The notes: generated from the letters alone by a model not told the origin. A DNA stretch of 64,000 bases from a virus (IMGVR_UViG_2889931527_000001); one strand, 5' to 3'; counted from the stretch's first letter, positions 13,067 through 54,359 are shown. Made by a program: numbers and translations.

Positions 13067-13236
13067 CAAATAGCGGCGTAAAACCCCTTCCTTCAGGTAT
13101 GGGGATATAAGCCGCCTCAATGTGGTAGGGCGGGACACGCCCAAACCTATACGCTCGGGGAGATCGTGTAAGACCTGCTTGCAGGCAATGGTCGCTGAAC
13201 TGAGAATCCCCTGCCTTTAGGCATGGGGAGTGTCAA
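13067..13236 (+). mobile_element. tnpB-less IS200/IS605 mini-element (left end + omegaRNA scaffold), copy 1
   Basis: After TCTAT; left-end hairpin CCCC..GGGG; 3' part closely similar to the RNA region after tnpB; ends TCAA. Confidence 0.9.
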
Positions 13237-38365: not shown

Positions 38366-38425
38366 GGTGTCGGCTCCCTGACAAAGAATACGACACCTTA
38401 GAACACCAATCCCGAAGGGATGGTA
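38360..38425 (-). ncRNA. Putative antisense sRNA
   Basis: Minus-strand TTGTAA / TG-TATAAT promoter; terminator AGGTGTCG..CGACACCT-TATTTTT. Confidence 0.55.
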
Positions 38426-38479
38426 AATCTATTATACCATATCCTTCGGGGTTTACAAGACACCAGGAGGAAAAGCAAA

Positions 38480-38740
38480 ATGAAAAACAGACCCTTTCCA
38501 GAGATCATAAACGCGCACCATGCGGATGCACTAAGCCGAATGGAAGAAGATGCAGAACTGAATGCGTTGTACGAAGCGGAATGGTCGTTGCCGTGCGAAG
38601 ATGTTCGCAGCATGCTAGATAGCGGCGACGTGAACGCGGCTTCTGATTTCATCGCAATGCACCAAGTCAAGACCGAGCGCATGGGATTCCTGCTGGGCTA
38701 CCGCTACGCCATGCAGCTTGCACGGGAAATCTTTGTATAA
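38480..38740 (+). CDS. Hypothetical protein (identical to 50535-50795)
   Basis: Duplicated ORF. Confidence 0.7.
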   Translation: MKNRPFPEIINAHHADALSRMEEDAELNALYEAEWSLPCEDVRSMLDSGDVNAASDFIAMHQVKTERMGFLLGYRYAMQLAREIFV

Positions 38741-38760
38741 TTCACACAAAGAATATACCC

Positions 38761-38870
38761 TTGACTTCGGCTGAAAAATCGCATATACTATGACCACACA
38801 AACGGCGCACTTCCGCGCCACTCATACAGTCAAACTGTATTGGTGGTCGGGGTGCGCCGTTTTTCGTTTT
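38761..38870 (+). promoter_or_regulatory. Promoter (TTGACT-17-TATACT) plus attenuator leader
   Basis: ACGGCGCAC...GTGCGCCGT-TTTT stem. Confidence 0.7.
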
Positions 38871-38890
38871 CTCAGAAAGGAGCATGCTAT

Positions 38891-39646
38891 ATGAATGAAT
38901 TGCAAATTTTCCAGAATGCAGAGTTTGGAACGATTCGAACAATCGAGGAAAACGGCAAAGTGCTGTTCTGCGGGTCGGATGTGGCTAAGGCATTGGGATA
39001 TAAGAATCCTACAAAAGCCATTGCAGACCACTGCAAAGGAACTGTGGAGAGACGGGCTAACGATTCGTTAGGTCGTCAGCAGAATATGAAATTTATCACC
39101 GAAGGCGATATTTACCGCTTGGGGGCAAAGTCTGAGTTACCGGGTGCAGATAAGTTTGAATGCTGGATTTTTGATGAAGTCCTCCCCTCTATCCGCAAGC
39201 ATGGCGCATACATGACACCTGAAACACTGGAAGCTGCAATCATGAATCCTGATACACTTATCAAGATTGCAACTGCGCTCAAGGATGAACAAGAGAAGCG
39301 CAAGGCATTGGAAATCGCCAATTCCGAACTAACTGTTGACAACCAGATCATGAAACCCAAAGCGGACTATTTCGATGAAATCGTAGATAGGAACCTACTT
39401 ACCAATTTCCGCGAAACGGCAAAGCAACTTAATGTGCCGCCGAGAAAGTTTGTAAGCTTCCTGATCGAAAAGAAATATGCCTATCGAGATAAGAAAGGTA
39501 AGCTCCAACCGTACCAGCAGTATGTGGAAAGCGGCCTGTTCTGCCTGAAAGAGTGCTTGAATGAAAAGACCGGATGGGGAGGAACACAAACACTCATTAC
39601 GCCGAAGGGACGTGAAACGTTTCGGCTGCTGTTTATTGCTGCGTAA
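38891..39646 (+). CDS. Antirepressor (BRO-N + KilAC)
   Basis: LFCGSDVAKALGY, EVLPSIRKHG, TPKGRETF. Confidence 0.92.
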   Translation: MNELQIFQNAEFGTIRTIEENGKVLFCGSDVAKALGYKNPTKAIADHCKGTVERRANDSLGRQQNMKFITEGDIYRLGAKSELPGADKFECWIFDEVLPSIRKHGAYMTPETLEAAIMNPDTLIKIATALKDEQEKRKALEIANSELTVDNQIMKPKADYFDEIVDRNLLTNFRETAKQLNVPPRKFVSFLIEKKYAYRDKKGKLQPYQQYVESGLFCLKECLNEKTGWGGTQTLITPKGRETFRLLFIAA

Positions 39647-39713
39647 CCTATCATAGAATTTTAGCATTGAATATAGCCACTCAATATGCATTTTCTATGA
39701 AAGGAGCACAGAA

Positions 39714-40021
39714 ATGAATCAAACGTCTACGTTGCAAATTTTGAAGTCCGAAACATTTGGAACAGTAAAATGTGATTTCTATGGCGACGGAAATCAAGTA
39801 TACATGACCCGAGAGCAAATCGGAACTGCTTTAGGATATTCCAACCCCAAACGCGCCATTTCAGATATTCACAAGAGACACAAGGAAAGACTGGACAAGT
39901 TCTCAAGGGTAACGCAGATTGCGTACCCCTCCGGTGGAAAACAAGATGTGTATATCTACAACAGAAAAGGCGTTATGGAAATCTGCCGATGGAGTCAACA
40001 GGAAAAAGCTGATGCTTTTAT
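39714..40021 (+). pseudogene. BRO-N gene interrupted by a mini-IS
   Basis: MTREQIGTALGY...EICRWSQQEKADAF then the element. Confidence 0.75.
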
Positions 40022-40190
40022 CGAAGGCGGCGTAATACCCCTTGCTTCAGCTATGGGGATATAAGCCGCCTCAATGTGGTAGGGCGGGACACGCCCAAAC
40101 CTATACGCTCGGGGAGATCGTGTAAGACCTGCTTGCAGGCAATGGTCGCTGAACTGAGAATCCCCTGCCTTTAGGCATGGGGAGTGTCAA
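40022..40190 (+). mobile_element. tnpB-less IS200/IS605 mini-element, copy 2 (chimeric)
   Basis: After TTTAT; left end matches the full element, body matches copy 1; ends TCAA. Confidence 0.9.
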
Positions 40191-40247
40191 GTGTGGCTAA
40201 GGAAGCGCAAGAACAGTGAAATGAGTATTGAGAAAGAGGGTTTTATT

Positions 40248-41171
40248 ATGCCTACAATTCAAGATTTCGAAAAAGGGATTCAAAAATATTTTCGGTCGTG
40301 CGCTTTTTTAGCTGATTCATCCGTAACCCAACGTCGTCTTGTATGTGATAAACTGATCGAATATATGAGCGACAGAAAGAATGAGCAAATCACCGTCGAA
40401 ACATTGATTGACTTCCGCAACAGCATGGATGAATTTAAGCCCAGCACGATAAACAAATATATGCGTATCCTAAAATCTATCTTCGCTTGGATGCTTGATA
40501 TGGGTATATGGTATGGAGGAAATCCGGTGAGAAAGAACATGGAAGTTCCTCAGCATCAGCACGAAATCAAGAATGTTCTGAACGATAACGATATGATGCG
40601 AATTGTCAGGAGACGCGAAGATGCAGAAAAGAGTATTGTATACTTACGTAGACGTGCTATTACTCTGCTGCTTGTCACATCTGCCATGCGCGAATCTGAG
40701 TTGATCGAATTGCGTCCCATTGATTTAAACTGGGATAAAGGCACAATATATATTGCTAATGGTAAAGGCGGAAAAGATCGTACTGTGCTATTTTATAGTG
40801 TTGCGCAGGAAGCCGTAAAGGAATATATGAAGTTTCGTCCCGAATCTGCCACAGACCAAGATGCAGTATTCTTGGCAAATGATTGGAGAGGTGCACATAA
40901 GTTGGACCGGCGCAGCATCATTACGGATGTAAAAGAATACATTCGAAGCACAACAGGACGGACGGATATTTCTCCCCACTCGCTTCGTCATACTGCTGCT
41001 AGATATATGTTATCGAATGGTGTTCCAATGGCAGAGATTCAAGCACTGCTTGGACATTCTACAAGTGCAATCACAGAACATTATGCGAAGCTTCTCGCGC
41101 CCGATGTCACTCCGATCAATTCAGCATCAACAGCGTTTGACAAAGTATATCCCCACGGAACATCTGTTTGA
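40248..41171 (+). CDS. XerC/D-like tyrosine recombinase
   Basis: MRESE, GKGGKDR, PHSLRH, LGH, Y; no arm-binding domain. Confidence 0.92.
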   Translation: MPTIQDFEKGIQKYFRSCAFLADSSVTQRRLVCDKLIEYMSDRKNEQITVETLIDFRNSMDEFKPSTINKYMRILKSIFAWMLDMGIWYGGNPVRKNMEVPQHQHEIKNVLNDNDMMRIVRRREDAEKSIVYLRRRAITLLLVTSAMRESELIELRPIDLNWDKGTIYIANGKGGKDRTVLFYSVAQEAVKEYMKFRPESATDQDAVFLANDWRGAHKLDRRSIITDVKEYIRSTTGRTDISPHSLRHTAARYMLSNGVPMAEIQALLGHSTSAITEHYAKLLAPDVTPINSASTAFDKVYPHGTSV

Positions 41172-41190
41172 GTTCCGTGGGGATTTTTTT
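41149..41190. terminator. Terminator between the recombinase and tail genes
   Basis: ATCCCCACGGAAC..GTTCCGTGGGGAT-TTTTTT. Confidence 0.8.
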
Positions 41191-41195
41191 GTGCG

Positions 41196-42248
41196 TCAAG
41201 ATGTTGGCATATTGTTTGAAACATAGTTGTTTGTGCCATTGTCTGTTACGCCAGACCAATGTGTGAATGATGTACCACCTTGATATGCCACACCGCCATT
41301 GCATGTAACATTATTATACGATGTTCCTGTTCCCAATGTAATTCCGTTTCCTGCTGCAAAAGTATTCCCCATAATGTTGTTGCAAGCACACACATGGTTT
41401 GTAGTTGAGCCTGATCCTGATTGCAAAGAAAGCGAACCATAAAAAATATTTCCGATCAAAGTGCATTTTTGGCAGTCAGTCATAGTTACATTTCCAAAAA
41501 AACTATTGAAATGCATAAATGTATCCGTTTTTTGAGCGATTGCACCACATTCAACAAATGAAATTCCATTAAGTGAGCAGTTTTCAATATATGAATTGCT
41601 GAGTGAAAGCGTACTAGATATTAGTGCGCTATTATATGCATGGAGAGAAAATTCATCGGAAGGCGGAATGATGGCATTCACACTTTCTCCTTCCATATAT
41701 ACATTCGAAAGATATAAAATTCCTGTGGAAGTTCCATATTTAATTAAAAACTGTGACGGAAATGAAAGGTTAGATAAAGTAATCCCCCTCATATATAGAG
41801 TATTGTCAAATGAATTGTCCATATATATAAGCGAAGAAACATTTTGATCTGATGATGTAATCTTCACAGTGTTTGGGAAATATGTTCCACCATCATTTTT
41901 TGAACCATATTGTTGTCCTTCAATCATAATATTCGATAGTGGTAAGATTGGATTGGAAACAGTATACGTGCCATCAAGAAGTAAAATGTTTGCTCCTATT
42001 TCTGTCGCCTTTTGAATAGCTTGGTTGATCTCCACTTCGTCCGAAGCCCCGTCACATATATAATCACAAGTAGAAAGCGTGGCACCGCTTTGTGTTGTTC
42101 CGACAATAATATATCCTCGTCCAGATCCGCCGATTCCATCCAAATTTTGCAATGTATCAGTGATTGCTTGTAACTCTGATGCATTGATCGGTGGCGATTG
42201 ATTGTTTATCCATGTAGGGCTTATATATCTTCCGTTTGAAATTGGCAT
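41196..42248 (-). CDS. Beta-helix tailspike-like protein
   Basis: DGASDEVEINQAI..LLDGTY pectate-lyase-like start. Confidence 0.7.
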   Translation of the reverse strand: MPISNGRYISPTWINNQSPPINASELQAITDTLQNLDGIGGSGRGYIIVGTTQSGATLSTCDYICDGASDEVEINQAIQKATEIGANILLLDGTYTVSNPILPLSNIMIEGQQYGSKNDGGTYFPNTVKITSSDQNVSSLIYMDNSFDNTLYMRGITLSNLSFPSQFLIKYGTSTGILYLSNVYMEGESVNAIIPPSDEFSLHAYNSALISSTLSLSNSYIENCSLNGISFVECGAIAQKTDTFMHFNSFFGNVTMTDCQKCTLIGNIFYGSLSLQSGSGSTTNHVCACNNIMGNTFAAGNGITLGTGTSYNNVTCNGGVAYQGGTSFTHWSGVTDNGTNNYVSNNMPTS

Positions 42249-42271
42249 GTATAATTCATCCCTTTCTGTTC

Positions 42272-42568
42272 TTAAAGCTGATCGCCTATTCCAAAGCTGA
42301 CTGCAATTGCATTACTCATGCCATACCAATATTGCACCAAAACCATATCGCCAATTTGAGCAGATGATAGCGCTGCTACATATGGAATATTAAATATCTG
42401 GGTATCATTTGGCTGCATAACTCCAAGTGTTGTACCATTAGGGGTAGTAACAACAGTCACCTTTTTCATGCGAATGCAGTTTTTTGTTTGATTTTGAATT
42501 TCTTGAATAATCTTAGGTCGCAATTCGTTCCATGCTCGTACTGCTTCCACCTGATCTTGATTTTGCAT
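42272..42568 (-). CDS. Small tail-associated protein
   Basis: Position; OB-like beta pattern. Confidence 0.55.
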   Translation of the reverse strand: MQNQDQVEAVRAWNELRPKIIQEIQNQTKNCIRMKKVTVVTTPNGTTLGVMQPNDTQIFNIPYVAALSSAQIGDMVLVQYWYGMSNAIAVSFGIGDQL

Positions 42569-42582
42569 GTTGTGGTATCCCT

Positions 42583-44076
42583 CTATTCGTTTGCAATCAA
42601 AGTCACATCTACGGTATAAAGCCCCGGATTCCCAACGTTCACTGTGGTAGCACCGCTTTTATCGGGTGTCTTGGCAGATACATTCCACTCACCATAGGTA
42701 GGAACTGTGAATGTAGCTGTTCCGGTTGAAACCGCTGTTAATGTGGTGTCACTTAATGTAAGTGTTACTACTGCCCCGGCAGTAACAGTAACTACGACTG
42801 TTGCATAAATCTGTGTGGACGGGAGTGGATATGGGGATGCAGACGGAAAATCATTCACGCTGGTACAGTTGATCTGCATTTTACCACCTTGCGCGATGGA
42901 GCGCGTAAAACCTGTAATCAAATGACGTTCTATTGGATTACCGCTTTTGTCCATCCTGCGAACCGTCGCCAAATTGTTTTCGGTGATATGGAAAAGCTGG
43001 GATGATTCGATAGTAACAGATTTTTTGAGTACGGTATTTCGCTTCAAATAGTATTCAGCGAGTTCTTGACATTGCTCGTCTGCGTAATAGCTTGTTTCAT
43101 CAAATATTTTGGTACGCATTCCTAAAATTCCAGTGTTGGTATCGCTCGAAGGGTCTTGATTTACTGCACGTCCGGACGGAACATGATTTCCATTGATGGC
43201 CTGTCCAATAACAATAATGTCATTGAATACTTCTGTGTTTTGAACGGCATAGGTGGCTCCCAAAAACTCGCCAGTCATGGGGGAGAAGTTCCATATAATA
43301 GGCTTGTCACTATCAAGAATATCTTCATAGGCTGCATCAACACGAAGTTGACCGTTTTGATCGTATCCAATCCAACCCACAAGCATTTTGTTGAGTTCAA
43401 GCAATATATCCGCAAATGTAACATTGTTGCTATCGAAACGTGCAGTATAGGGCGCATTTACCCACGGTTGTGTGGTGCCATCTGCTAATGTAATTGTTTT
43501 GTTGTTGTAGTATGTGGTGTATATCGGGGGTAAACTGTCTATCGGTAGACCATTGCCACGATCTCGTTTCAATATTCCCGAAATGCCCGTTAAAATATTT
43601 TCTCCGCGCTCAATCAGCGCCCATCCCTCAAGATTACCAAACAATGTTCCATCTAACATTGCCCACTTATCCACCAATGTATAACGCACTATTTTTTGGT
43701 TTGGAAGAAAGCTTTCTTCTGGATTTTTGACATAGAACACGCCTTGAGGAAGATAGAAGTCTGACCCGTCTGGCATAACAAGACCTTCCATCAGGCGTAT
43801 TTGTGTTCCAAACCACACGTTATTGACATTGTAGTCATACTCTTGGTTTATGTTGGAAAGTGTGACCGTTGCTTGTCTACGCTGCCCATTTTGGAGATTT
43901 ACAGCCAGTTCCCCTTCTTGTATGAATGCTCCCGATCTAGGATTTTGAGGATTGTTTGAAACAGAAAATGCAATAGACCCGTCCGGCTGTAAAAAATCCA
44001 GCCGGGCGAGTTTGTAAAAGCTACCGCCTTTAATTGCATTTAAGTACATATCCCATGTGGTTTGATTGATTGCCAA
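42583..44076 (-). CDS. Tail hub/baseplate protein with C-terminal Ig-like module
   Basis: LPQGVF, LVDKW motifs; position in the tail module. Confidence 0.65.
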   Translation of the reverse strand: MAINQTTWDMYLNAIKGGSFYKLARLDFLQPDGSIAFSVSNNPQNPRSGAFIQEGELAVNLQNGQRRQATVTLSNINQEYDYNVNNVWFGTQIRLMEGLVMPDGSDFYLPQGVFYVKNPEESFLPNQKIVRYTLVDKWAMLDGTLFGNLEGWALIERGENILTGISGILKRDRGNGLPIDSLPPIYTTYYNNKTITLADGTTQPWVNAPYTARFDSNNVTFADILLELNKMLVGWIGYDQNGQLRVDAAYEDILDSDKPIIWNFSPMTGEFLGATYAVQNTEVFNDIIVIGQAINGNHVPSGRAVNQDPSSDTNTGILGMRTKIFDETSYYADEQCQELAEYYLKRNTVLKKSVTIESSQLFHITENNLATVRRMDKSGNPIERHLITGFTRSIAQGGKMQINCTSVNDFPSASPYPLPSTQIYATVVVTVTAGAVVTLTLSDTTLTAVSTGTATFTVPTYGEWNVSAKTPDKSGATTVNVGNPGLYTVDVTLIANE

Positions 44077-44082
44077 TCTTCA

Positions 44083-44640
44083 TCACCCGTTCAAAATCTT
44101 ATCGCGTTCTGCCAAGGTAATGTCCCCTTTTTGAACAGCTATATCAACCAATGATTTTGTCCAAAGTCCACGAGTATAATTCTTCTGAACTCTTATCGCA
44201 GCGCTGGAAAGTTCTGTTTCAGCGGAAATAGTTTCCGAAGTCATAGTCATTGCCATAACTTGAGGCGTAGCTTCTGAGGCCGGCAATGCCATCATTACTT
44301 GCGCTTCCAATGCTGCGGCAATACGTTCTTCGTTAGTAGGTTCATTAGCAAAAGGAGGATTATCCTCAAAATCACTGATTGCCTGTAAATAGTCATCGTC
44401 AGATTGACATTGGCTGAAATCGCATCCGATCCGCTTGTAATGCTCAACAGTTGCATTGAATTCCATCGCAACAGAACCATTGATAACGCTATTTGAAATT
44501 ATCATTTTGGCATCTGGATTCTGCGCCCATGCATATCGTTCAAGCCATTCTTCCGCAGTAAAATGATTTTTACCTGTATCCTTATCCCGCCCCGGTGTGT
44601 AAATGTCAGATTTTTTATCCCAAAGTTTGTACTTATTCAT
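44083..44640 (-). CDS. Tail-fibre-associated protein (XkdX-like C-terminus)
   Basis: NYTRGLW..AVQKGDIT. Confidence 0.55.
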   Translation of the reverse strand: MNKYKLWDKKSDIYTPGRDKDTGKNHFTAEEWLERYAWAQNPDAKMIISNSVINGSVAMEFNATVEHYKRIGCDFSQCQSDDDYLQAISDFEDNPPFANEPTNEERIAAALEAQVMMALPASEATPQVMAMTMTSETISAETELSSAAIRVQKNYTRGLWTKSLVDIAVQKGDITLAERDKILNG

Positions 44641-44661
44641 AGCGTCCTCCTTTTGTTATAT

Positions 44662-46656
44662 TTAATTTCCTGTATATACTTCAACGATATTTGACCAATA
44701 AGCATTTGGATTTCCTGAACTCGATCCACTCTTTCGTCCTCCGGCGAACAAGGCGTAGTATCCATTAGAAACGGATGTAAGTAGGTCCCTTGGAACTTGC
44801 AATGATGTTGGAGTAGAACGTGTCAATGATGAATTGAAAGCATAAGCAATATCTTTTGAGCAGAAAATAGAGTAAAATCCGCAAGTGCTAGATGCTCCGT
44901 TAGTTCCTATGTTTTTGGGCAATTCGTTTAATATGGTACGAGTCAAGGACGAGTCATATACATTTACAATTTGTTCGGACACAAATATTACATTGTTTCC
45001 GTTTGTGGCAGCAGTTAAATAACTCAATGGTTCACTGAGGGGCATGCATGAAGTTTGTGTAAGGTTTTCATCATAGGATATTGCATTATCTAGTGGGGTG
45101 CTTCCAAAATACCCTCCTACAAACAATGCATAATTCCCTACATGACCGCTAGAGTTATTTACCCGTAATGTTGAATCCGATGCGGGGGTTGTCTTTGTTA
45201 AATTATCATCATATGCAGTCGATGCTCCAGCATAATTGTTAGATTGCGCTGAAACAAATAGGGCATATATTCCTACTGGTTCTGCGCTCGACTGAAATGC
45301 CCCTCCATTTAGACTTTCTGGTTGTGTTCGCGTCAAATTTGTATTATAAGCTGTTACATACTCAGATTGGCCTATAATTCCATAATCCGAATTGTAAGTT
45401 GCTGCCCCATTTGCAACGGAATATCCATAAAGATCGGATGCAACATTTTGTGTGAGAGACGAATCGTATGCCACAGTTTCAATTCCTAAACCTGAATTAG
45501 CCGTAGATGTGAGACCTCCGGTAATTATCATATATTCTCCTGCTAATGTACTTACCGAATTAGTTCTGCCAGCAGTAAGAGACGTAGCCCGTCCATAATA
45601 TTGTGCCGTCGGAACTGGCTCCAATGTTGCGGTATAGGAGGCGGGAACACTTATATTTACAACATTCGTTGATCTTCCATCCGCAAGCTGCGCAGAGACT
45701 TCCCAATCTCCTGGCGATGTAAGTAGAATAGTTGCTGTTCCATCCGAAACTGCGGTAAGTTCTGTTGCGCCATTTATAGCAGTAACGGTTGCTCCTGAAT
45801 CCACCGTTACCACTAGTGGGACTGCAAAGGTATTTCCTTCATAGGTTCCTTGGACTCCAAAAATGCTAATTCCACTTTTTATATTAGCGGGAAGCAAGTT
45901 TGTATCGCCCTCAATCGTTTGCACACCAGTAAGATACTGTTGAGCAGCGATGGTTTGATTTGACGTGGATGGAGTGATGGTTTGTGCGCCTTGGACTGCG
46001 AGTTGTTGAGTGGCACTTTCTGTGCCTTGCTCCACATACCCAGCATCTTGTGTTGCACTTGCTGTAATCAATCCGCTACTATTAACAGTGATCGATGGTA
46101 TAGCTTGCGAAACGGTATCAATTGCTTTTGATACGGCTTGCGCATAGTATCCAGCAGGAACGGAAATGGATGCGCCACTAATTGTTACACTTTCATCATT
46201 ATTTGTTGGTATTGTTCCAGTAATTTTGCCGCTTCCAACATAAGCTGTATATGGCGAAAGTATGGTATTTGCTGTGGCGGTTGCATCAGATGCCAGTGAA
46301 CCGGGGGTCACGTTTCCTGTAATTTGTTGCCCATTGACCCAAGCAGTTTCGCCAGATAAAATACTATTTTCTGTTGCCGTTCCTTGGGTTTGGCTCTCAA
46401 GGGATTTGGAAGATATCTTCCCCTCTCCATCATGATATCCATATGGAATGTCAAACGATTCTCCGGCATTCAATTCTGCCGATACTGCGCCGCAATTTGG
46501 CATAGTTCCGGTGACAGGCGAGTTGTTGGCCAAATAGAATTGTTTTCCAAGCAAAACATCTGCATCCGCGCCTGCGTTTTCAAGTTGCGGCAAATTCGGG
46601 TCAGCGGCTATGATATATTGTCCAGGACCCGGAACTTCAAATGTTACTTGTCCCAA
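44662..46656 (-). CDS. Tail fibre / receptor-binding protein with Kelch-like C-terminus
   Basis: ILSGETAWVNGQQITG repeats, YALFxGG repeats. Confidence 0.75.
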   Translation of the reverse strand: MGQVTFEVPGPGQYIIAADPNLPQLENAGADADVLLGKQFYLANNSPVTGTMPNCGAVSAELNAGESFDIPYGYHDGEGKISSKSLESQTQGTATENSILSGETAWVNGQQITGNVTPGSLASDATATANTILSPYTAYVGSGKITGTIPTNNDESVTISGASISVPAGYYAQAVSKAIDTVSQAIPSITVNSSGLITASATQDAGYVEQGTESATQQLAVQGAQTITPSTSNQTIAAQQYLTGVQTIEGDTNLLPANIKSGISIFGVQGTYEGNTFAVPLVVTVDSGATVTAINGATELTAVSDGTATILLTSPGDWEVSAQLADGRSTNVVNISVPASYTATLEPVPTAQYYGRATSLTAGRTNSVSTLAGEYMIITGGLTSTANSGLGIETVAYDSSLTQNVASDLYGYSVANGAATYNSDYGIIGQSEYVTAYNTNLTRTQPESLNGGAFQSSAEPVGIYALFVSAQSNNYAGASTAYDDNLTKTTPASDSTLRVNNSSGHVGNYALFVGGYFGSTPLDNAISYDENLTQTSCMPLSEPLSYLTAATNGNNVIFVSEQIVNVYDSSLTRTILNELPKNIGTNGASSTCGFYSIFCSKDIAYAFNSSLTRSTPTSLQVPRDLLTSVSNGYYALFAGGRKSGSSSGNPNAYWSNIVEVYTGN

Positions 46657-46671
46657 ATATTTTTCCTCCTT

Positions 46672-49074
46672 TCATGGTACTTGCTGCGTTTCGGTATACT
46701 CTCCCATTGCGACTGTAATTGTGGTTCCGCTGGGAGCAGTTACAGTAAGATATGCGTAAACAGGTCGAATTTCAAGCCCTACATAATAGGTTTGTCCTTG
46801 ACTTATGGTAATTGTTTTGGTTTCAACCGACCCGTCTAACATACCGGATACCGTCCATTCTCCGGCCGTGGGCGGATCATATTGAATCGGAGCAGTATAG
46901 ATAGAAACAAACGAATAAGTCCCATTCGATATTGTGATTTCACTTCCAACGGGAGCAGTAACAATGATCTGTGTATCGCTTTGAGGCTGTACGGGTGGCA
47001 CAAGATCATTCCATCCGTTATCTCCACTTTGACAGATTACAGATGCACCATTTATCGGCCCACTTTCCATCCATGGAATAGACCCGAAATACGGCTGTGG
47101 CGCTTGATTATCTCCTGTCTGCATGGTGATCGCTGCTTGGGTTTCTATTCTCCAAAAGTTTCCTTTTCTGTCTCGCAGGAACTTAGGGTCGGTGCTGGTA
47201 GATAACTCCCACAATGCAGTGGCTTGCTCAACTGTATCAATATAACGATTGTTTACCATATCTACTTTCCCGATATATCCGGTTAATGTAGACGAAATAT
47301 AATTATACGAGGTAGGTTGGCGAGTCGGATACGGAGTGAAATTCTGTAACATATTCGGTGTATTGTTGTTTGTAAGTGCATCCGTAGACACATTGTTGCG
47401 GAAAATATGCACACCATTGACATGATACACACCATCTGAATTTTGTATGCAGTCTAATACGGTCCAGTTCCAGTGCATTGGGAATACTATATTGGATGGC
47501 AAAGCATCTGATACATACTGTGTTTCTCCTAGCGCAAACACATAATAGGTATAATTCACCTGATTTCTATATCCTTCATCCACAATTTCTGTGGTAGATA
47601 TGTCTAAGTTTGCTACCAGAGATAGAGCGCTGTCACCTTGCGCTTGCCGATATAATGCCACGCCTACCAAATTTTCATTTGGAGTTATGTTCCCAGCATT
47701 TAGGCCGGTATCGTTGAATGTGGCAAGAAATAACGTATCAAGCCCCCATGTGGGTTCATATTGCAAATCATAGAGTAGGTCATGGAGTGAATCACCCGAA
47801 ACCTCTCCATCAAGGGCTGTTATCCATTGGCATATTTGTTGTCCATAGAGTGTAATGCTTGATATGTTCGGCTGCACCCATGTCAATGGGGACTTGACAG
47901 CATTCCATATAATCATTCCAGAATCAGGATACAATATATTGGACGGATATAGCGATTCGCTAGGGAACAGCCCTCCTTTATAGGTCGCATAGTATACATG
48001 AAGTTCTCTTGGTGTAATTACAATGCGGAGCGGCAGCGACGATTGAATAGAATCGATTGTTACAGAACCAACTATGACATCTCCATTCATGATTGAAATG
48101 GACTCTGGCGTTACGTTAACATTGATCGTTCCGTTTATGGATAGAGCCGGAGATGTTCCGTTTGGTGGATAGAACGATGACCACGCAATCGACCACGGAG
48201 TTTCGAAGTCCATAGGTGCGCCGTTCTTTTCATCCCAAGTCACAGACGAACCTAGCGGAAGATTCAAATTGCCGTTTTCAATCGTATAGTTCCCATTAGC
48301 TGTCCCAGGGATGTACGACACACGCGACCACCGAACCAATATGCCGTCATAAATTCCCGGACAGGCTTCGACATATCCGGTGAAGTCGCTTACTGCATAT
48401 TGAACAGTAAATTCTTGCCATCCCGTATCTGCTTGCATTCCATACTCGGTCTGAATCTGGCAGCGTACTTCATAAGTAGTTCCAACCAACAAACCGTCAT
48501 AAGTGACTTGGATATCCTCTGTTCCAAAGATTTCTCCTGAATCTTGGATCGGAGAATCTTCGCTTCCTTTAACTGCAAGCTGCCATCGGAACCAATCCAG
48601 AGAATCGCCTTGCGCTTGAGAGTAGTCGGCTGTAAATGTTGCCATTCGGCTTGTAACCGGTGACGTAAATGCTTGAATTGAAATGGTCGGCTCTGATCTT
48701 GTCCAGAAGAAGGATGGCGAAATCTGTTCGAGCGACCCTCCACTCCACCATTGCGTGATAAGCATTTTATATCCGCTTTCGAATCCGTTTGAAAGACCGC
48801 TCAGTGCTGATGCTTGGACCGGAACATTATAAAACTGCACTGTTCCAGTGCTGCTTGTGCCGTAAAATGGTGGATTGACTGGCGTTTCTCCGCTGTCGAA
48901 CACTTTAGATGATTCTTCTGTGTTCTCGAAAATTTGAATCTGGTATGCTGTCAACGCAGACGAACCATTGACTTGCCATGATATTGTTAAGTCCTGCGTG
49001 ACATCAATAACGCCACCACCCACACCCGCGAAAGAGGACGGAAATATGTTGGTCGGCTGGAATAGTGGCATCAC
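46672..49074 (-). CDS. Large tail/baseplate protein (Fn3/Ig-rich)
   Basis: Beta-rich composition; position. Confidence 0.7.
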   Translation of the reverse strand: MMPLFQPTNIFPSSFAGVGGGVIDVTQDLTISWQVNGSSALTAYQIQIFENTEESSKVFDSGETPVNPPFYGTSSTGTVQFYNVPVQASALSGLSNGFESGYKMLITQWWSGGSLEQISPSFFWTRSEPTISIQAFTSPVTSRMATFTADYSQAQGDSLDWFRWQLAVKGSEDSPIQDSGEIFGTEDIQVTYDGLLVGTTYEVRCQIQTEYGMQADTGWQEFTVQYAVSDFTGYVEACPGIYDGILVRWSRVSYIPGTANGNYTIENGNLNLPLGSSVTWDEKNGAPMDFETPWSIAWSSFYPPNGTSPALSINGTINVNVTPESISIMNGDVIVGSVTIDSIQSSLPLRIVITPRELHVYYATYKGGLFPSESLYPSNILYPDSGMIIWNAVKSPLTWVQPNISSITLYGQQICQWITALDGEVSGDSLHDLLYDLQYEPTWGLDTLFLATFNDTGLNAGNITPNENLVGVALYRQAQGDSALSLVANLDISTTEIVDEGYRNQVNYTYYVFALGETQYVSDALPSNIVFPMHWNWTVLDCIQNSDGVYHVNGVHIFRNNVSTDALTNNNTPNMLQNFTPYPTRQPTSYNYISSTLTGYIGKVDMVNNRYIDTVEQATALWELSTSTDPKFLRDRKGNFWRIETQAAITMQTGDNQAPQPYFGSIPWMESGPINGASVICQSGDNGWNDLVPPVQPQSDTQIIVTAPVGSEITISNGTYSFVSIYTAPIQYDPPTAGEWTVSGMLDGSVETKTITISQGQTYYVGLEIRPVYAYLTVTAPSGTTITVAMGEYTETQQVP

Positions 49075-49092
49075 ATCACCGCCTTTCTATAA

Positions 49093-49170
49093 TAAAAAAA
49101 GGCCGCAACCTGCCCAATGCAGATTACAGCCCCAATCGACTTTCTTCTATCCCCAACCGGAAAGAAACTG
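49093..49170 (-). promoter_or_regulatory. Late-module terminator/antiterminator element, copy 3
   Basis: Same architecture as 56971-57050 and 63711-63795. Confidence 0.55.
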
Positions 49171-49242
49171 AAAAGGCGCAGAACTCACCAAAGCATACCT
49201 AGACTTGTATTCTGGTACGTTTTGGCGCGTTCCGCGCCGCAT
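49171..49242 (-). promoter_or_regulatory. Attenuator leader paralogous to 36772-36845
   Basis: CGGCGCGGAACGCGCCAAA...GTTCTGCGCC-TTTT. Confidence 0.6.
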
Positions 49243-49297
49243 CAATCATATTATTTTATATTATTATATCACACATAAACGGAAAATGCAAGAGCAA

Positions 49298-50077
49298 TTA
49301 TGAAGGAGGGCCAAATGATACGGTCAAACCACCGCCGATCTCTACCTCACCGCCGGTCATTAACTTAGCATTGCGATATACCGCGATATGTCCGGTCTGT
49401 GAAGTATCGCCAAATATCTCATTCACGACGCTTCTACCATCTGGCTTTCGTACAAAGCAGTTGCCGCTTCCGGACACCAATGTGATATTATACACGCCAG
49501 GTGCAATATCTTTACCAATCTCGTAAACTCCCGCTGAAAATTCATAGCTTTGTGTTGAATCTTCTAACCCCGAACCGTTTGTTCCTTCGGTTGGGTCAAC
49601 GACAGGCCCATTGTAATCAATGTGTCCAAAATCTGATGATATTTTCAAAAAATCCGTATTCCCCGATTCATCTGTTTGTACATCAGAATCATCCGATTCT
49701 TGGCTACTAACCGCAGGTTCATCCATGCTTGCGGCGTTCTTGTTTGAAAGAAAGTCTTTTAATTTTAATGCGCCAAAAGCACCACCGCCAATAATCGCAA
49801 GAGCCAATATGGTGACTATGATTTTTTTCATAATGGATTTTTTCTTCTTTTTCACGCGCTTCTTATCGGGCTGGATACTTTCGGATTCTTTTGTACGTTG
49901 TTGGGCAACTATTCGCTGCATGGCATCACGATTTAACGCCGGGTCTGCCTGATAAATGTTTTCTGGAAATTCTACGCGAGTTCCGCATTTCGGGCATGTT
50001 CCAGCCCCGCCAAATTCGCACCGCAGTTTTTGTCCGCATTTCGGGCAGGCTACAACCACTTTATCTCTGTTTTCCAT
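49298..50077 (-). CDS. Membrane-anchored moron protein (Zn ribbon + TM + extracellular domain)
   Basis: CPKCG x2, TM helix, AGVYEIGKDIAPGVY. Confidence 0.75.
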   Translation of the reverse strand: MENRDKVVVACPKCGQKLRCEFGGAGTCPKCGTRVEFPENIYQADPALNRDAMQRIVAQQRTKESESIQPDKKRVKKKKKSIMKKIIVTILALAIIGGGAFGALKLKDFLSNKNAASMDEPAVSSQESDDSDVQTDESGNTDFLKISSDFGHIDYNGPVVDPTEGTNGSGLEDSTQSYEFSAGVYEIGKDIAPGVYNITLVSGSGNCFVRKPDGRSVVNEIFGDTSQTGHIAVYRNAKLMTGGEVEIGGGLTVSFGPPS

Positions 50078-50235
50078 AGCTATCCTCCCTTTTAATCAAT
50101 CTCTATACCCTACTTTTATTTTACCATATCAAGAATCCATTTCCAATACAAATGCAAAGAAATATTTTTGGGAAAACGCCTTGACTTTTCAGGATATCCG
50201 ATATATAATTTGGATATCCAGAAAGGAGGTGCAAG

Positions 50236-50418
50236 ATGTCACCAAATATTGGGCGACCGAAATCAAATAATCCAAGAGATTTGCAGTATCGTTTGCGCTT
50301 AACCGAAGATGAAGTTAATAAACTGAATTTTTGTTGTAGGGTATTAGGTCTTACAAAAGCAGAAGTGTTGCGGAACGGATTGGAAATTATGTTTGAAAAA
50401 GCCCAAAGTTCCAAATAA
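50236..50418 (+). CDS. CopG/RHH small regulator
   Basis: MSPNIGRPK...TKAEVLRNGL; GGATATCC repeats in its promoter. Confidence 0.8.
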   Translation: MSPNIGRPKSNNPRDLQYRLRLTEDEVNKLNFCCRVLGLTKAEVLRNGLEIMFEKAQSSK

Positions 50419-50485
50419 ATTAGGCGTTCGTTGCCGTGACAAAGCTTGACGAACGCCTAGTGTATCAATCCTAAAGAGGATGATA
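50415..50485 (-). ncRNA. Putative antisense sRNA
   Basis: TTGATT-17-TAGAAT; terminator-like TAGGCGTTCGT..ACGAACGCCTA. Confidence 0.55.
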
Positions 50486-50534
50486 AATCCATTCTATCAT
50501 CCTCCTTGGGGAAAATCAAGGAGGAAAAGCAAAA

Positions 50535-50795
50535 ATGAAAAACAGACCCTTTCCAGAGATCATAAACGCGCACCATGCGGATGCACTAAGCCGAATGGAA
50601 GAAGATGCAGAACTGAATGCGTTGTACGAAGCGGAATGGTCGTTGCCGTGCGAAGATGTTCGCAGCATGCTAGATAGCGGCGACGTGAACGCGGCTTCTG
50701 ATTTCATCGCAATGCACCAAGTCAAGACCGAGCGCATGGGATTCCTGCTGGGCTACCGCTACGCCATGCAGTTGGCACGGGAAATCTTTGTGTAA
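50535..50795 (+). CDS. Hypothetical protein (duplicate of 38480-38740)
   Basis: Identical protein. Confidence 0.7.
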   Translation: MKNRPFPEIINAHHADALSRMEEDAELNALYEAEWSLPCEDVRSMLDSGDVNAASDFIAMHQVKTERMGFLLGYRYAMQLAREIFV

Positions 50796-50944
50796 TTCAC
50801 ACAAAGAATACACCCTTGACTTCGGCTGAAAAATCGCATATACTATGACCACACAAACGGCGCACTTCCGCGCCACTCATACAGTCAATCTGTATTAGTG
50901 GTCGGGGTGCGCCGTTTTTCGTTTTCTCAGAAAGGAGCAATAAC

Positions 50945-51697
50945 ATGAATGAATTGCAAATTTTCCAGAATGCAGAGTTTGGAACGATTCGAACAATCGA
51001 GGAAAACGGCAAAGTGCTTTTCTGTGGGTCGGATGTGGCTAAGGCATTGGGATATAAGAATCCCAGTAAAGCACTTTCAGACCATTGTAAGGGTATAACG
51101 AAACGTTATACCCCCACTAAGAGCGGGACGCAAGAAATGAATTTCATTCCAGAAGGCGATATTTACCGCTTGGCGGCAAAGTCTGAGTTACCTGGCGCAG
51201 ATAAGTTTGAAAGCTGGATTTTTGATGAAGTTCTCCCATCCATTCGCAAGCATGGAGCATACATGACACCGGAAACACTCGAAGCCGCAATCATGAATCC
51301 AGACACCCTTATCAAGATTGCAACCGCGCTCAAGGATGAACAAGAGAAGCGCAAGGCATTGGAAATCGCCAATTCCGCACTAACTGTGGACAACCAGATT
51401 ATGAAACCCAAAGCGGACTATTTCGATGAAATCGTAGATAGGAACCTGCTTACAAATTTCCGCGAAACGGCAAAGCAACTTAATGTGCCGCCGAGAAAGT
51501 TTGTAAGCTTCCTGATCGAAAAGAAATATGCCTATCGAGATAAGAAAGGTAAGCTCCAACCCTACCAGCAGTATGTAGAAAGCGGACTATTCAGCCTGAA
51601 AGAGTGTTTGAATGAAAAGACCGGATGGGGAGGAACACAAACACTCATTACGCCGAAGGGACGTGAAACGTTTCGGCTGCTGTTTATTGCTGCGTAA
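50945..51697 (+). CDS. Antirepressor (BRO-N + KilAC)
   Basis: Paralog of 38891-39646 with a different central BRO segment. Confidence 0.92.
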   Translation: MNELQIFQNAEFGTIRTIEENGKVLFCGSDVAKALGYKNPSKALSDHCKGITKRYTPTKSGTQEMNFIPEGDIYRLAAKSELPGADKFESWIFDEVLPSIRKHGAYMTPETLEAAIMNPDTLIKIATALKDEQEKRKALEIANSALTVDNQIMKPKADYFDEIVDRNLLTNFRETAKQLNVPPRKFVSFLIEKKYAYRDKKGKLQPYQQYVESGLFSLKECLNEKTGWGGTQTLITPKGRETFRLLFIAA

Positions 51698-51764
51698 CCT
51701 ATCATAGAATTTTAGCATTGAATATAGCTACTCAATATGCATTTTCTATGAAAGGAGCACAGAA

Positions 51765-52072
51765 ATGAATCAAACGTCTACGTTGCAAATTTTGAAGTCC
51801 GAAACATTTGGAACAGTAAAATGTGATTTCTATGGCGACGGAAATCAAGTATACATGACCCGAGAGCAAATCGGAACTGCTTTAGGATATTCCAACCCCA
51901 AACGCGCCATTTCAGATATTCACAAGAGACACAAGGAAAGACTGGACAAGTTCTCAAGGGTAACGCAGATTGCGTACCCCTCCGGTGGAAAACAAGATGT
52001 GTATATCTACAACAGAAAAGGCGTTATGGAAATCTGCCGATGGAGTCAACAGGAAAAAGCTGATGCTTTTAT
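51765..52072 (+). pseudogene. BRO-N gene interrupted by the tnpB element
   Basis: Same sequence as 39714-40021. Confidence 0.75.
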
Positions 52073-53394
52073 CGAAGGCGGCGTAATACCCCTTGCTTCA
52101 GCTATGGGGATATAAGCCGTATATTAAGAATTGCGATCATAAGGAGGTGAATCACTATGGAATATTCGTATCGGTTTCGAATCTATCCGACAAAGGAGCA
52201 AGAAGCACAGATTGCTAAGACGCTTGGTTGCTGCAGATATGTTTACAATCACTATCTTGCCATGAGAACACAAATCCACAAGGACAAAAAAGAATCTATG
52301 AACTACAATGCTTGTTCTAAAGATATGACAGAACTCAAAAAATCTTTGGATTGGCTGAAAGAAGTGGATTCTACGGCTTTACAATCTGCATTGAAGTTTT
52401 TGGATACGGCGTATCAGAACTTCTTTCGCCGCTTGAAGACGGGCGAAAAACCTGGATATCCCAGATTCAAAAGAAAACACGACCCCAGACAAAGTTATAC
52501 CAGCAAATGTGTGGGCAAGAGCATTCAGGTTCTTGAACATGCGGTGAAGCTGCCAAAGTTAGGTAAAGTCAAATGCTGCATTTCCAAGCAGGTGCAGGGA
52601 CGGATTTTGTCTGCCACTGTAAGTCGAAACCCAAGTGGTAAGTATTTTGTTTCTTTATGCTGTACGGATGTATCCATAGATGCTTTGCCTTCAAAAGGTA
52701 AGTCTGTCGGAATTGATCTCGGCATAAAAGCTTTTGCCGTTTCTTCTGATGGTTTCACATATCAGAACCATAAGCATCTTACCAGCAACCAGAAGAAGCT
52801 TGCCAAGCTCCAACGTCAGTTGTCCAGAAAAACAAAGGGCAGTAAACGCAGGGATAAGGCAAAACAAAAGGTTGCACAGCTGCACGAACGGATTGCAGAC
52901 CAAAGAAAGGACATGCTACACAAGCTATCCACAAAGCTAATTCGTGAAAATGATATCATTTGCATGGAAGATTTGGCTGTCAAGAATATGGTCAAGAATC
53001 ATAAACTAGCAAAATCTATTGCAGATGCTTCGTGGGGCGAGTTTCGCAGACAGCTAACCTATAAGGCAGAATGGTATGGTCGGAAGCTGGTCGTCATAGA
53101 CCGATTCTATCCTTCCAGTCAGATGTGTTCTGCTTGTGGTACATTGTGGTCTGGCACAAAGGATTTGGCTGTTCGAAAATGGACGTGTCCAGATTGCGGC
53201 ACGGTACATGATAGGGATGTCAATGCAGCGAAGAATATCCTTGCAGAAGGACTTCGCATGTTGGCATAAATTTTGCATGGTAGGGCGGGACACGCCCAAA
53301 CCCATACGCTCAGGGAGACTATGTAAGACCTCGCAGGTGCAGGCAACGGTCGCTGAACTGAGAATCCCCTGCCTTTAGGCATGGGGAGTGTCAA
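52073..53394 (+). mobile_element. IS200/IS605-family (IS1341-type, tnpB only) element
   Basis: TTTAT target motif, left- and right-end subterminal hairpins, TCAA end, no tnpA. Confidence 0.92.
52157..53269 (+). CDS. tnpB: RNA-guided endonuclease TnpB
   Basis: HTH_OrfB N-terminus; RuvC D (GIDLG), E (MEDL), D (HDRD) intact; CxxC..CPDC Zn finger. Confidence 0.97.
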
Positions 53395-53410
53395 TGTCCA
53401 GATTGCAGAT
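53275..53410 (+). ncRNA. TnpB omegaRNA (reRNA) scaffold plus flank-derived guide
   Basis: Conserved structured right end shared by all three elements; 5' boundary uncertain. Confidence 0.75.
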
Positions 53411-53652
53411 AGATGGGGCGGTGCTGCACATATACAGGACATACATAATGAACTCTACCGACTGCTTGAGCAAACAGCGCATGTGGACTTAAAGCGCAGA
53501 GTGGAAAATCGTAGGCGGCGTATGGCGGAAGAGGGTATATGCAAATCAAGACGGGGAAAGCTGAACCGCCTAGATATTATCGCAGACGACCCGAAACTGA
53601 TGCCGATTTATTTGGATTTGGTGAAGCGGATGGCAATTAAGAACAATGTAGA
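53395..53652 (+). pseudogene. C-terminal fragment of an antirepressor-like gene
   Basis: RRRRMAEEGICKSRRGKLNRLDIIADDPKL pattern; no start codon. Confidence 0.6.
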
Positions 53653-54340
53653 TAGCCTGGGTGTACAGTGCCATGATCTTGGAATACATGCCAGCCATGA
53701 TTGCGTTGTAGTACCAGCCGATATCCGTATCGTTTGCGACCATCTGATACCACTTGATGGTTGCATTCGCTGTATACCAATGCGGATTGAGTGTTACCGT
53801 GCCATCGTACAGATAGTTGGTGGATGCCGAACGGTTTGCGCCCGGTGCAGAATCCTCAAACAAGAAAATGTCGTTGCTGTGAATTGTGATTTCCTTGGTC
53901 TGTCCCATGGGAACAGTAGTCATTTCCAGCAACATACCGCCCGCATTCGCAATGGTGTACGGCAGAAGCGGGGTGATGACCTCACGAACAACGCCCGCCA
54001 TAGTAGCGAGAAATGTTCCGTTGCGTTGCAAAGAAACATCATTAACGACCTCTTGGTAGGAGGACGGCGGTTGCTTGCCTTGCTGTGCATATGCGCACGC
54101 TGCGCAGAACATCATGAGCTTTTCTTTATGGCCCTTTGCCATAGTCGCGTATGTAAGCTGATCTTTCAGTACCGGCTGATATTCATTGTTCTTGCGCACC
54201 TGATTGCTCATGCGTCCTGCATATTCCATTGCCACCAGGCGACCGCCTGCAATCAGGTCATCGCGGGAAATACCCGCCGTTTGATTTCCCTTGTGAGAAA
54301 CAAAAATTTCATTGGAAATGCTGTTAAGTTTCAAAGACAT
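53570..54340 (-). pseudogene. Major capsid protein, 3'-truncated near 53650
   Basis: Follows the protease and decoration genes; the frame runs into the antisense strand of the antirepressor fragment. Confidence 0.6.
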
Positions 54341-54359
54341 TCTTTATTCAACCCCTTTC

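Follow-up and report, generated by a model that had tools for sequence, protein, structure and literature searches.

How do two paralogous genes of one prophage come to be broken by an insertion sequence at the same nucleotide? The question is raised by two antirepressor cassettes, A and B (Table 1), in the window, i.e. the whole 64,000-nt stretch of viral DNA that was analysed, whose neighbouring genes were assigned to tail, portal, antirepressor and integrase by PHROGs and Pfam. A sequence-only reading had explained the coincidence by TnpB homing. We examined the shared junction, the elements adjoining it and their flanks, and compared these with the intact alleles and the related genomes in public data.

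Table 1. Coordinates of the cassettes, elements and flanking genes in the window.
Feature	Position	Strand	Description	Basis
Mini element, 170 nt	13067..13236	+	follows CTAT; source type for the body of the chimera at 40 kb
Cassette A	38407..40021	+	conserved small-ORF block; BRO-N/KilAC antirepressor gene, ATG 38891 to 39646; first 102 codons of a second BRO-N gene, start 39714	BLAST against cassette B; Pfam Bro-N and ANT domains; block divergence
Truncated BRO-N ORF, copy A, 116 aa	39714..40064	+		Pfam Bro-N profile positions 3-86 of 96
Chimeric non-autonomous mini, 169 nt	40022..40190	+	left end 40022-40068 of full-element type; body and right end (candidate ωRNA scaffold) 40069-40190 of mini-13067 type; end ...GTCAA
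Tyrosine integrase gene	40221..41171	+	directly right of the 40-kb mini	Pfam Phage_integrase, E 3e-32
Cassette B	50466..52072	+	small-ORF block; BRO-N/KilAC gene 50945-51697; first 102 codons of a second BRO-N gene, start 51765	BLAST against cassette A; Pfam; block divergence
Truncated BRO-N ORF, copy B, 116 aa	51765..52115	+		protein identical to copy A
Full tnpB-only IS200/IS605-family element, 1322 nt	52073..53394	+	left end 52073-52119; tnpB 52157-53269; right end and candidate ωRNA scaffold about 53270-53394	Pfam; PDB match; conserved right-end structure
C-terminal fragment (~87 residues) of an ORF6N/P22_AR_N-type antirepressor, not BRO-N	53395..53654	+		94% identical to the C-termini of P0001 and P0002

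A shared junction in two diverged cassettes

In both cassettes the second BRO-N gene is truncated after codon 102, where GCTTTTAT is joined directly to CGAAGGCGG. A search of the window for the 17-mer GCTTTTATCGAAGGCGG, allowing ≤1 mismatch (chance expectation 0.01 matches), returned two occurrences, at 40014 and 52065, both on the + strand, and the junction is present at these two positions only. The interruption of both cassettes at one and the same site, as originally described, was thus confirmed. Codons 1 to 102 of the truncated ORF in copy A are native, and the left end of the insertion sequence supplies the stop together with the 14 codons before it. The resulting 116-aa protein is recorded on 4 contigs in public data.

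The two regions (38407-40068 and 50466-52119) align by BLAST with 94.1% identity over 1667 columns, and the differences are distributed very unevenly. Divergence between A and B amounts to 2.6% in the block 38482-38981, with 240 perfect nt at 38477-38716, then to 35% (38982-39081), 11.5% (39082-39289) and 3.8% (39290-39581), and finally to 0.2% in the 487 nt of 39582-40068. The one difference in this last block is a SNP at 39678, after which 390 perfect nt run up to 40068; apart from the left end, 343 nt of identical sequence flank the junction. The earlier statements that about one SNP lies near the junction and that KilAC holds several synonymous SNPs agree with these counts, the latter with 25 of the 32 differing codons in the KilAC part. 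The rise of identity toward the junction, which had been claimed as well, holds across the right-hand ~1 kb, but not for the profile as a whole, which is non-monotonic because of the second near-identical block at the far left. Differences at third codon positions amount to 13/47, 8/47, 2/47, 5/46 and 0/102 in successive stretches; toward the site they thus go from 4% up to 11% and only then to 0, and the distal block is near-identical too. SNP density, on which the sequence-only reading had wished to rest its decision, is therefore strongly non-uniform; a uniform density was to have spoken against homing, but recombination anchored in insertion sequences or phage mosaicism also gives a non-uniform density, so that this comparison does not discriminate.

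Judged by a third-position divergence of up to 28%, the cassettes are old paralogs. A simple recent duplication was rejected, the synonymous divergence being too high. Since the tract that holds the junction is 0.2% divergent, against up to 28% at synonymous sites in other parts of the cassettes, the alignment supports a recent transfer of the junction from one old paralog to the other through recombination or gene conversion. To this extent the recombinational copying between cassettes that had been proposed is upheld.

The elements and the genes that they interrupt

The full element encodes a TnpB of 370 aa with the Pfam domains OrfB_IS605, Cas12f1-like_TNB and HTH_OrfB_IS605, and in a PDB search it matched the ISDra2 TnpB structure 8bf8 with E 4.9e-102. 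In an alignment to the designed TnpB-like nuclease 9yyg (362 residues), GIDLGIK, MEDL, HDRD and CxxC...CxxC are kept; for the RuvC-like acidic triad we assumed the residue numbering of TnpB. This full copy is devoid of tnpA. A Y1_Tnp protein (E 9e-45) is encoded by a related element on contig C8, which is the one autonomous tnpA+tnpB relative in the genome (68-77% related) and carries the only tnpA among the family copies. Both TnpB and TnpA are thus present and look intact by sequence. The left-end hairpin adopts the same predicted fold in three copies, with a G-C/C-G swap, and its energy is no better than that of shuffled sequences (z about -1.2). For the right end 25 pairs are predicted, 6 of them with compensatory changes among 12 copies. 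Such a structured right end would fit an ωRNA scaffold, and we treat it as a candidate; an Rfam search for ωRNA gave 0 matches at E≤1. The candidate guide of the full element corresponds to the first 16 nt of the antirepressor fragment to its right. Each of the four resident guides matches as a 16-mer only itself perfectly, and no near-match (≤3 mismatches) to them was found behind TTAT.

The elements at 13067 and 40022 are reduced to their ends, ~47 nt on the left and ~120 nt on the right, and contain no ORF. The one at 40 kb is a two-template chimera in the assembly, as the sequence-only reading had recognised: its left end equals 52073-52119 of the full element in 47/47 nt, and its body and right end equal 13115-13236 of the mini in 122/122 nt, while the same 122 nt are only 91.5% identical to the right end of the full element. 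Left ends of the full and the mini type differ by three SNPs and in their first ~6 nt. Two of these SNPs form the compensatory G-C/C-G swap in the hairpin, which argues that two element lineages meet in the chimera. Over their last ~46 nt, the right ends of full element and mini align without difference. The 31-mers that cross the switch point have no second occurrence in the genome. The left junction is TTAT in 4/5 independent copies and CTAT in 1/5, a count that leaves aside the more distant sixth copy L075, and no target duplication is visible. Two other designations were rejected, namely a longer, composite element extending over the cassette as well, given the 9% difference between the two right ends, and an IStron, since a 5' part of intron size is absent.

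To the right of the elements, the two loci have nothing but 3-4 nt in common, and the integrase side (from 40191) is without similarity to the sequence from 53395 onward. These unrelated right flanks had not figured in the earlier account. The fragment at 53395..53654 is unique in the genome, and its homology with relatives ends at 53654. The proteins P0001 and P0002 (301 and 281 aa, both ORF6N/P22_AR_N) read ...SKKI and then IVQIADRWGG across the break point. The full element is thus bordered by pieces of two different genes, a BRO-N head on its left and an ORF6N/P22_AR_N tail on its right. In the related metagenome contig L057 the same junction of right end and flank is found without left end and without tnpB; the flank is 97.3% identical in nucleotides to the fragment, the right end only 86.3%. 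Rearrangements with an end point inside the element are thus recurrent.

The search for empty alleles that had been suggested was productive at the level of protein, as an intact BRO-N allele is available as the public protein P0020 (272 aa), which reads ...ADAF and then MDWVWEV... across the break and continues into a KilAC domain. The truncated BRO-N is identical to it in 102/102 residues and diverges thereafter. When the genome was searched with P0020 by tblastn, residues 1-104 were found at the two loci only, all other matches being paralogs of 25-32% identity, and residues 105-272 had no close match anywhere in the genome; neither right flank continues BRO-N. The N-terminal parts of P0001/P0002-type proteins are likewise absent from the genome. 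No remainder ORF was found 3' of the right end among the 10 members of the P0020 cluster examined, nor in the region search.

The BRO-N|left-end junction itself recurs in public contigs, where it is followed either by the tnpB interior (X1, X10) or by an interior of tnpA type (X4). It was found on three BRO-N haplotypes, each of which is also known intact (P0140/P0020, P0142/P0145, and the X1-X10 contigs/P0021). On contigs X4 and X15 there are also matches that end at 40018 and might represent intact alleles in which the codon is TTC, and X15 has 491 unaligned letters beside a match that begins at 40191. A search of relatives with 49100-55000 gave matches in 12 of 41 genomes, G000 included, the others being parts of the element, antirepressor genes of 65-78% identity and a few short weak matches. 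With 39700-41200, matches were obtained in 12 of 164 genomes of the family, again including G000, and in the other 11 they concern the element only. Right ends are matched in 11 of the 163 other genomes of the family, and similar minis exist in related genera. Phage records yielded 4 matches covering ≤2% of the query. Among viral contigs the BRO-N head matched 44 loci with identities of ≤57%, the C-part 2 loci (48%), and P0020 had a best full-length match of 46%. The integrase had no match in genome contigs or viral contigs, and P0001 none in genome contigs.

Possible origins of the shared junction

We favour, with a probability of roughly 60%, one TnpA insertion followed by recombination between the paralogous cassettes, with the ends of the insertion sequence acting as portable homology. 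As the intact allele suggests, an IS200/IS605-family element would have inserted once, behind TTAT, in a prophage BRO-N/KilAC gene. Recombination between two element copies would then have removed the rest of the BRO-N gene, so that the full tnpB element came to lie with the BRO-N head on one side and the ORF6N/P22_AR_N-type tail on the other; we infer this element-by-element deletion because the two flanks differ and both missing halves are absent. More recently, non-allelic gene conversion or crossing-over would have copied the junction of BRO-N and left end between the diverged cassettes. The copied tract comprises at least 390 identical nt, and its right endpoint lies inside 17 nt common to both left-end types (40052-40068), where it meets the mini-type body beside the integrase gene. 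The direction of copying and the prior state of the recipient can be inferred in two ways that fit equally well: the 40-kb locus may have held a mini beside the integrase gene and received cassette flank and left end from copy B, or a full element may have occupied it and then had its interior overwritten by sequence from the 13067 mini. A homology of 17-47 nt with three mismatches is short for RecA-type recombination, so that a phage recombinase or template switching must be assumed. TnpA and TnpB, being present and apparently intact, would be candidates for making the initiating break. A fall in divergence over the ~1 kb before the junction is what break-initiated co-conversion would be expected to produce, and a nuclease-made break at this place is therefore possible. 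The order of events given here is tentative, as a single genome does not yield it.

TnpB homing, as first proposed, states that TnpB and its ωRNA cut an empty BRO-N paralog, for whose repair the occupied paralog served as template until a switch to a mini copy. Its components are at hand, as TnpB looks intact, is close to ISDra2 TnpB and has the acidic and zinc motifs aligned, a TAM-like TTAT lies at the junction, TnpA is encoded in the genome, and divergence drops toward the junction. The mechanism is also established for excision sites, where copying restores the element from a sister copy (PMC10055086), and for identical plasmid copies, between which it spreads the element (10.1101/2025.02.20.638934). 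However, the guide should equal the 16 nt behind the TAM in the empty target, and the intact allele, compared as protein, goes on from F to M-D-W-V-W. The resident guides start TGTCC, GTGTG, TCATT and AAGGT, so none of them (0/4) can encode the D-W-V-W continuation. Nor is there homology on both sides of donor and recipient, with 94% over 1.66 kb on the left and 3-4 nt on the right. The recipient did not obtain a copy of the donor element, as the 47-nt left end is shared and the remainder is that of the mini; a switch to the 13-kb mini would moreover finish in the right flank of that mini, unlike the sequence at 40191. The gene remainder expected in an empty paralog is missing from the genome and was not met with 3' of a right end among the 10 members of the P0020 cluster or in the region search, and the far near-identical block at 38477-38716 would be left unexplained. 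We therefore consider this account distinctly unlikely, and do not retain cleavage of an empty paralog as the starting event; the TnpB nuclease as a trigger of the copying is possible but unsupported.

One sub-scenario of the favoured reading is set apart here since it fixes the order of events: cassette and full element would have been duplicated first, so that a full element stood at either locus, and the interior at 40 kb later replaced by the 13-kb mini via gene conversion whose endpoints lay in left-end and right-end sequence common to both. This order seems doubtful, although in X1 and X10 a contig leads from the cassette through the left end into about 1.26 kb of the interior of a full element at about twice the depth of the integrase contig (18 versus 8.1 and 67.4 versus 31.4), a contig of X10 runs from the last 28 nt of the right end into the integrase gene, and the identical ~46 nt of the right ends would provide a right-hand anchor. 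Contig depth is not copy number, however, 28 nt fall short of the 31-nt rule for bridging, and the X1/X10 contigs carry another BRO-N haplotype; why the duplication should have ended exactly at the right end is also left unexplained.

That TnpA inserted twice independently, at the same TTAT of both paralogs, is scarcely credible. TnpA does insert behind a short motif, which both paralogs would have possessed, but left end and 343 nt of flank are identical where the rest of the cassettes differs by up to 35%, left end and body of the 40-kb element stem from separate lineages, and the gene remainder lies to the right of neither locus. An artefact of assembly or polishing, in which repeat collapse or mis-mapped reads would have created the chimera or the adjacent near-identity, we hold to be very improbable. 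The region is repeated, and a 390-nt identical run would draw reads from both loci. The Logan contigs listed for four runs do not include the chimeric junction: their minis carry the left end of 13-kb type, none spans the switch point with a full-type left end, and none bridges the junction of right end and integrase under the 31-nt rule, which is to be read with the fact that Logan contigs break at repeats. On the other hand, the unique 31-mers over the switch point mean that a graph assembler would need reads to produce them, the contig of 1.55 Mb has its only N about 400 kb away, and the segment of 35% divergence was retained, so that the cassettes were not collapsed.

Returning to recombination between the cassettes, the occurrence of the junction on three haplotypes could mean repeated spread instead of patchy recombination to the left of the junction. 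A more far-reaching version, which we regard as unlikely, is that breaks made by the resident TnpA/TnpB seed non-allelic conversion, so that the truncated antirepressor allele with a short co-converted flank spreads between loci and haplotypes and chimeric elements are made on the way. The three haplotypes with their intact counterparts and the one-sided identity gradient would then be traces of TnpB-assisted ectopic spread.

Relation to known systems and implications

In its TnpB domains, left-end hairpin and insertion behind a short motif the element resembles IS200/IS605 members such as ISDra2, IS608 and the tnpB-only IS1341-like group. The target motif is TTGAT in ISDra2 and TTAC in IS608, whereas it is TTAT or CTAT here; the right end finishes in TCAA, as that of IS608 does. 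It differs from a typical IS200/IS605 element in that the full copy has no tnpA and that one gene contributes its left flank and a different gene its right flank. In prophages, insertion sequences are known to promote deletions and mosaic exchange by acting as portable homology. The present breakpoints at or inside element ends (at both loci and in L057) and the missing parts of both interrupted genes between the elements correspond to this behaviour, from which nothing essential differs. The locus is hence an ordinary IS200/IS605-family member in a mosaic prophage, to be filed under portable homology.

With TnpB recombinational copying the locus shares TnpB, a candidate ωRNA, a TAM-like motif, TnpA in trans and the fact that a junction was copied, but the guide-target match and the two-sided homology that such copying needs are both missing. 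Like palindrome-associated transposable elements (PATEs), the minis at 13067 and 40022 keep both ends and have no coding capacity; unlike PATEs, the 40-kb copy has its two ends from separate lineages. PATE-like minis are noted for Geobacillus elements (PMC10055086). The rise of identity toward the element over ~1 kb is reminiscent of the co-conversion gradient in the homing of group I introns and homing endonucleases (PMC13565253), but in our case the gradient is one-sided, the other side is without homology, and 1.3 kb off there is another identical block.

Provided that the ordinary reading holds, the locus serves as a clear worked example of how small IS200/IS605 elements and their minis reshuffle the antirepressor genes of prophages, with gene halves fused across an element and chimeric elements created. 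It also calls for caution, as the same insertion point in two paralogs together with an identity gradient is insufficient to call TnpB homing; guide-target match and two-sided homology need to be checked beforehand. Should ectopic conversion seeded by TnpA/TnpB be true instead, TnpB-assisted spread would extend from sister and plasmid copies to non-allelic sites in a genome.

Prophage setting and element copies

The window, which is prophage DNA, corresponds to positions 487101-551100 of contig C4 in the source genome (G000; 3.28 Mb, 11 contigs), and most of the sequencing runs containing this stretch are chicken-gut metagenomes. The features discussed here are listed in the table. The tnpB-only copy (full element) encodes a 370-aa TnpB with three Pfam domains that matched ISDra2 TnpB structures (E 4.9e-102), its acidic and zinc motifs being aligned in the structure search, and a related autonomous element on contig C8 carries Y1 TnpA as well as TnpB. 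As four of five independent left junctions follow TTAT and the fifth follows CTAT, all right ends compared terminate in GTCAA, and the right-end fold is conserved (compensatory change in 6 of 25 pairs among 12 copies), the element boundary drawn in the sequence-only reading is correct. An Rfam search with the right end matched no family. A pairing rule connects the target tetranucleotide to bases on the 5' side of the left-end hairpin; the TAMs of ISDra2 and IS608 are TTGAT and TTAC, respectively. In the full element, the opening 12 nt of the guide (53395-53406) recur at 53186-53197, within the zinc-finger codons of the same element's tnpB, probably by chance, since no TTAT precedes 53186. The guide of the 13-kb mini has two 15/16 matches (G000:C6:420418 and 202823, - strand), neither preceded by TTAT.

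Features of the window
Feature	Coordinates	Strand	Remarks
Replication and methylase genes	left half of window	+	
Mini element	13067-13236		~47 nt of left end and ~120 nt of right end retained
Mini element	40022-40190		~47 nt of left end and ~120 nt of right end retained
Integrase region	starts 40191		right flank at 40-kb locus
Tyrosine integrase gene	40221-41171		
Tail genes	41196-49074	-	
tnpB-only element, IS200/IS605 family	52073-53394		
In-frame gene fragment	starts 53395		right flank of full element; unique in G000
Portal and head-region genes	53570-62000	-	

Repeats also occur elsewhere in the window. An ORF of 481 aa (5800-7245) contains at 6149-7177 a tandem array of 27-nt units, nine codons each and at least 28 in number, and the early-gene region holds short direct repeats at 19057-19218/25376-25537 (96%) and 18948-19098/24399-24549 (80%).

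Divergence of the paired cassettes and the chimeric mini

In each antirepressor cassette a BRO-N/KilAC gene is accompanied by a second BRO-N ORF, 116 aa long, and by a conserved block of small ORFs; the two cassettes aligned with 94.1% identity (38407-40068 versus 50466-52119). Both are broken at the same 17-mer, found in the window only at 40014 and 52065, as had been noticed from the sequence. Divergence between them was strongly uneven: 2.6% at 38482-38981 (including 240 perfect nt) and, falling toward the element from 38982 on, 35% at 38982-39081, 11.5% at 39082-39289, 3.8% at 39290-39581 and 0.2% at 39582-40068, where a single SNP (39678) bears out the scarcity of SNPs near the junction. 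Third-position differences numbered 13/47, 8/47, 2/47 and 5/46, then 0/102 in the BRO-N head, and the synonymous SNPs reported for KilAC were recovered, with 25 of 32 differing codons synonymous. The uneven divergence and mostly synonymous changes indicate that purifying selection has acted on the cassettes, which are old paralogs, and that the identical tract adjoining the element is recent; a recent duplication was rejected on these grounds and on the third-position differences. The distal identical block at 38477-38716 shows that patchy exchange happens away from the element too. A third, inverted copy of the small-ORF block lies just right of the window (L077, G000:C4:551373-552056, - strand; 91-93% nt identity), carries a diverged BRO-N/KilAC gene and has beside it, at window 62207-63553, a gene that PHROGs identifies as a transposase (E 3e-76).

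The mini at 40022 is chimeric, as proposed: its first part (40022-40068) is the left end of the full element letter for letter, and the rest (40069-40190) matches the 13-kb mini at 122/122 nt but the right end of the full element at only 91.5% identity. Three SNPs and the first ~6 nt separate the two left-end types; two of the three SNPs exchange a hairpin G-C pair for C-G, so that they mark lineages rather than random changes. The template switch falls within 17 nt common to both types (40052-40068). An assembly-graph artefact is unlikely, as 31-mers spanning the switch point occur once in G000 and the contig's sole N is far off; a polishing artefact at the three left-end SNPs is conceivable.

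Flanks, gene remnants and relatives

The right flanks of the two loci share only 3-4 nt. The fragment at 53395 shares 94% identity with the C-terminal 90 residues of P0001 and P0002, proteins of 301 and 281 aa, which have ORF6N or P22_AR_N heads and read ...SKKI before and IVQIADRWGG after the breakpoint. An intact public allele of the BRO-N head, P0020 (272 aa, BRO-N + KilAC), is identical to it over 102/102 residues and continues MDWVWEV.... A tblastn search across G000 recovered neither P0020 residues 105-272 nor the P0001 and P0002 heads. Given these unrelated flanks and missing gene halves, neither locus is a simple insertion, the full element lying between one gene's head and another's tail. 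Most simply, two element copies would have recombined with loss of the intervening DNA. For P0143, an intact BRO-N/KilAC protein, and P0167, an intact one of ORF6N type, the longest contig is given as 94,830 nt in both cases, a hint that the two genes are neighbours in an element-free relative.

On metagenome contig L057 the small-ORF block (96%) is followed by other genes, a terminator and, further on, a solo right end, with neither left end nor tnpB, joined to the same C-terminal fragment. Its flank is 97.3% identical to the window and its right end only 86.3%, which shows that the junction between right end and flank is old and that its left side was replaced. The antirepressor tail remnant is a 100-aa ORF (L057 1658-1960; window 53381 onward) starting at an ATG within the element's right end (MGSVNVQIADRW...); recorded on 11 contigs as P0164, it is widespread and may be expressed. 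In G000 the remnant ORF (53395-54457) has lost the last ~10 codons and stop, and homology to relatives stops at 53654, pointing to another recombination breakpoint at about that position; the reading frame extends without a stop over 358 aa, in antisense orientation to a 256-aa ORF (53570-54340, - strand).

The junction of BRO-N head and left end occurs on three BRO-N haplotypes, each of which public data also contain as an uninterrupted gene of 267-272 aa: P0140/P0020; P0142, with the same 14-residue tail, and its intact partner P0145; and P0021. Logan contigs of runs X1 and X10 bridge the junction into the tnpB interior on a haplotype with a replaced segment shorter by 15 nt, as would fit P0021. 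In run X4, a low-depth contig (5.2) aligned at 39989-40068 continues from the BRO-N flank and left end into the interior of the tnpA-bearing type seen on C8; the site may thus hold an autonomous element in some strains. No ORF joining the right end to the KilAC remainder was recorded among the 10/10 cluster members read or in a region search.

Origin of the shared junction

According to PMC10055086 and PMC13565253, TnpB retention requires that the empty site have a TAM and match the flank-derived guide over 16 nt, and that a template homologous on either side of it be present; TnpB cuts excision sites, and recombination then restores the element. TnpB gene drive is described among plasmid copies (10.1101/2025.02.20.638934). 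Among the papers found by our literature search, none deals with TnpB driving conversion between paralogs of a chromosome or prophage. The sequence-only reading had TnpB cut an empty BRO-N paralog, with repair copying the occupied one and switching to a mini. Divergence falling toward the element fits recombination begun at or near it, and is silent on the break's maker. Against homing, the four resident guides begin TGTCC, GTGTG, TCATT and AAGGT, each matches perfectly in G000 only at its own site, and none can match the D-W-V-W codons after TTAT in the intact allele. The loci likewise lack homology on the right, and a switch to the 13-kb mini would finish in the flank of that mini instead of at the integrase. 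To save homing, one would have to add a simple insertion at an earlier stage and two deletions afterwards. With guide match and two-sided homology both missing, TnpB-triggered homing into an empty paralog is not supported; the other part of the proposal, recombinational copying of the junction between paralogs, holds on the sequence comparisons.

For such copying, the tract ends inside the element's left end, so the recipient must already have borne an element beside the integrase. It could have held a mini and received flank and left end from the cassette at 50466-52119 (copy B), or held a full element whose interior later gave way to that of the 13-kb mini. In X1 and X10, contigs that join cassette and element showed about twofold depth; this hints at the second course, although depth is not copy number. 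The locus is best read as an ordinary IS200/IS605 element family that supplies portable homology within a mosaic prophage.
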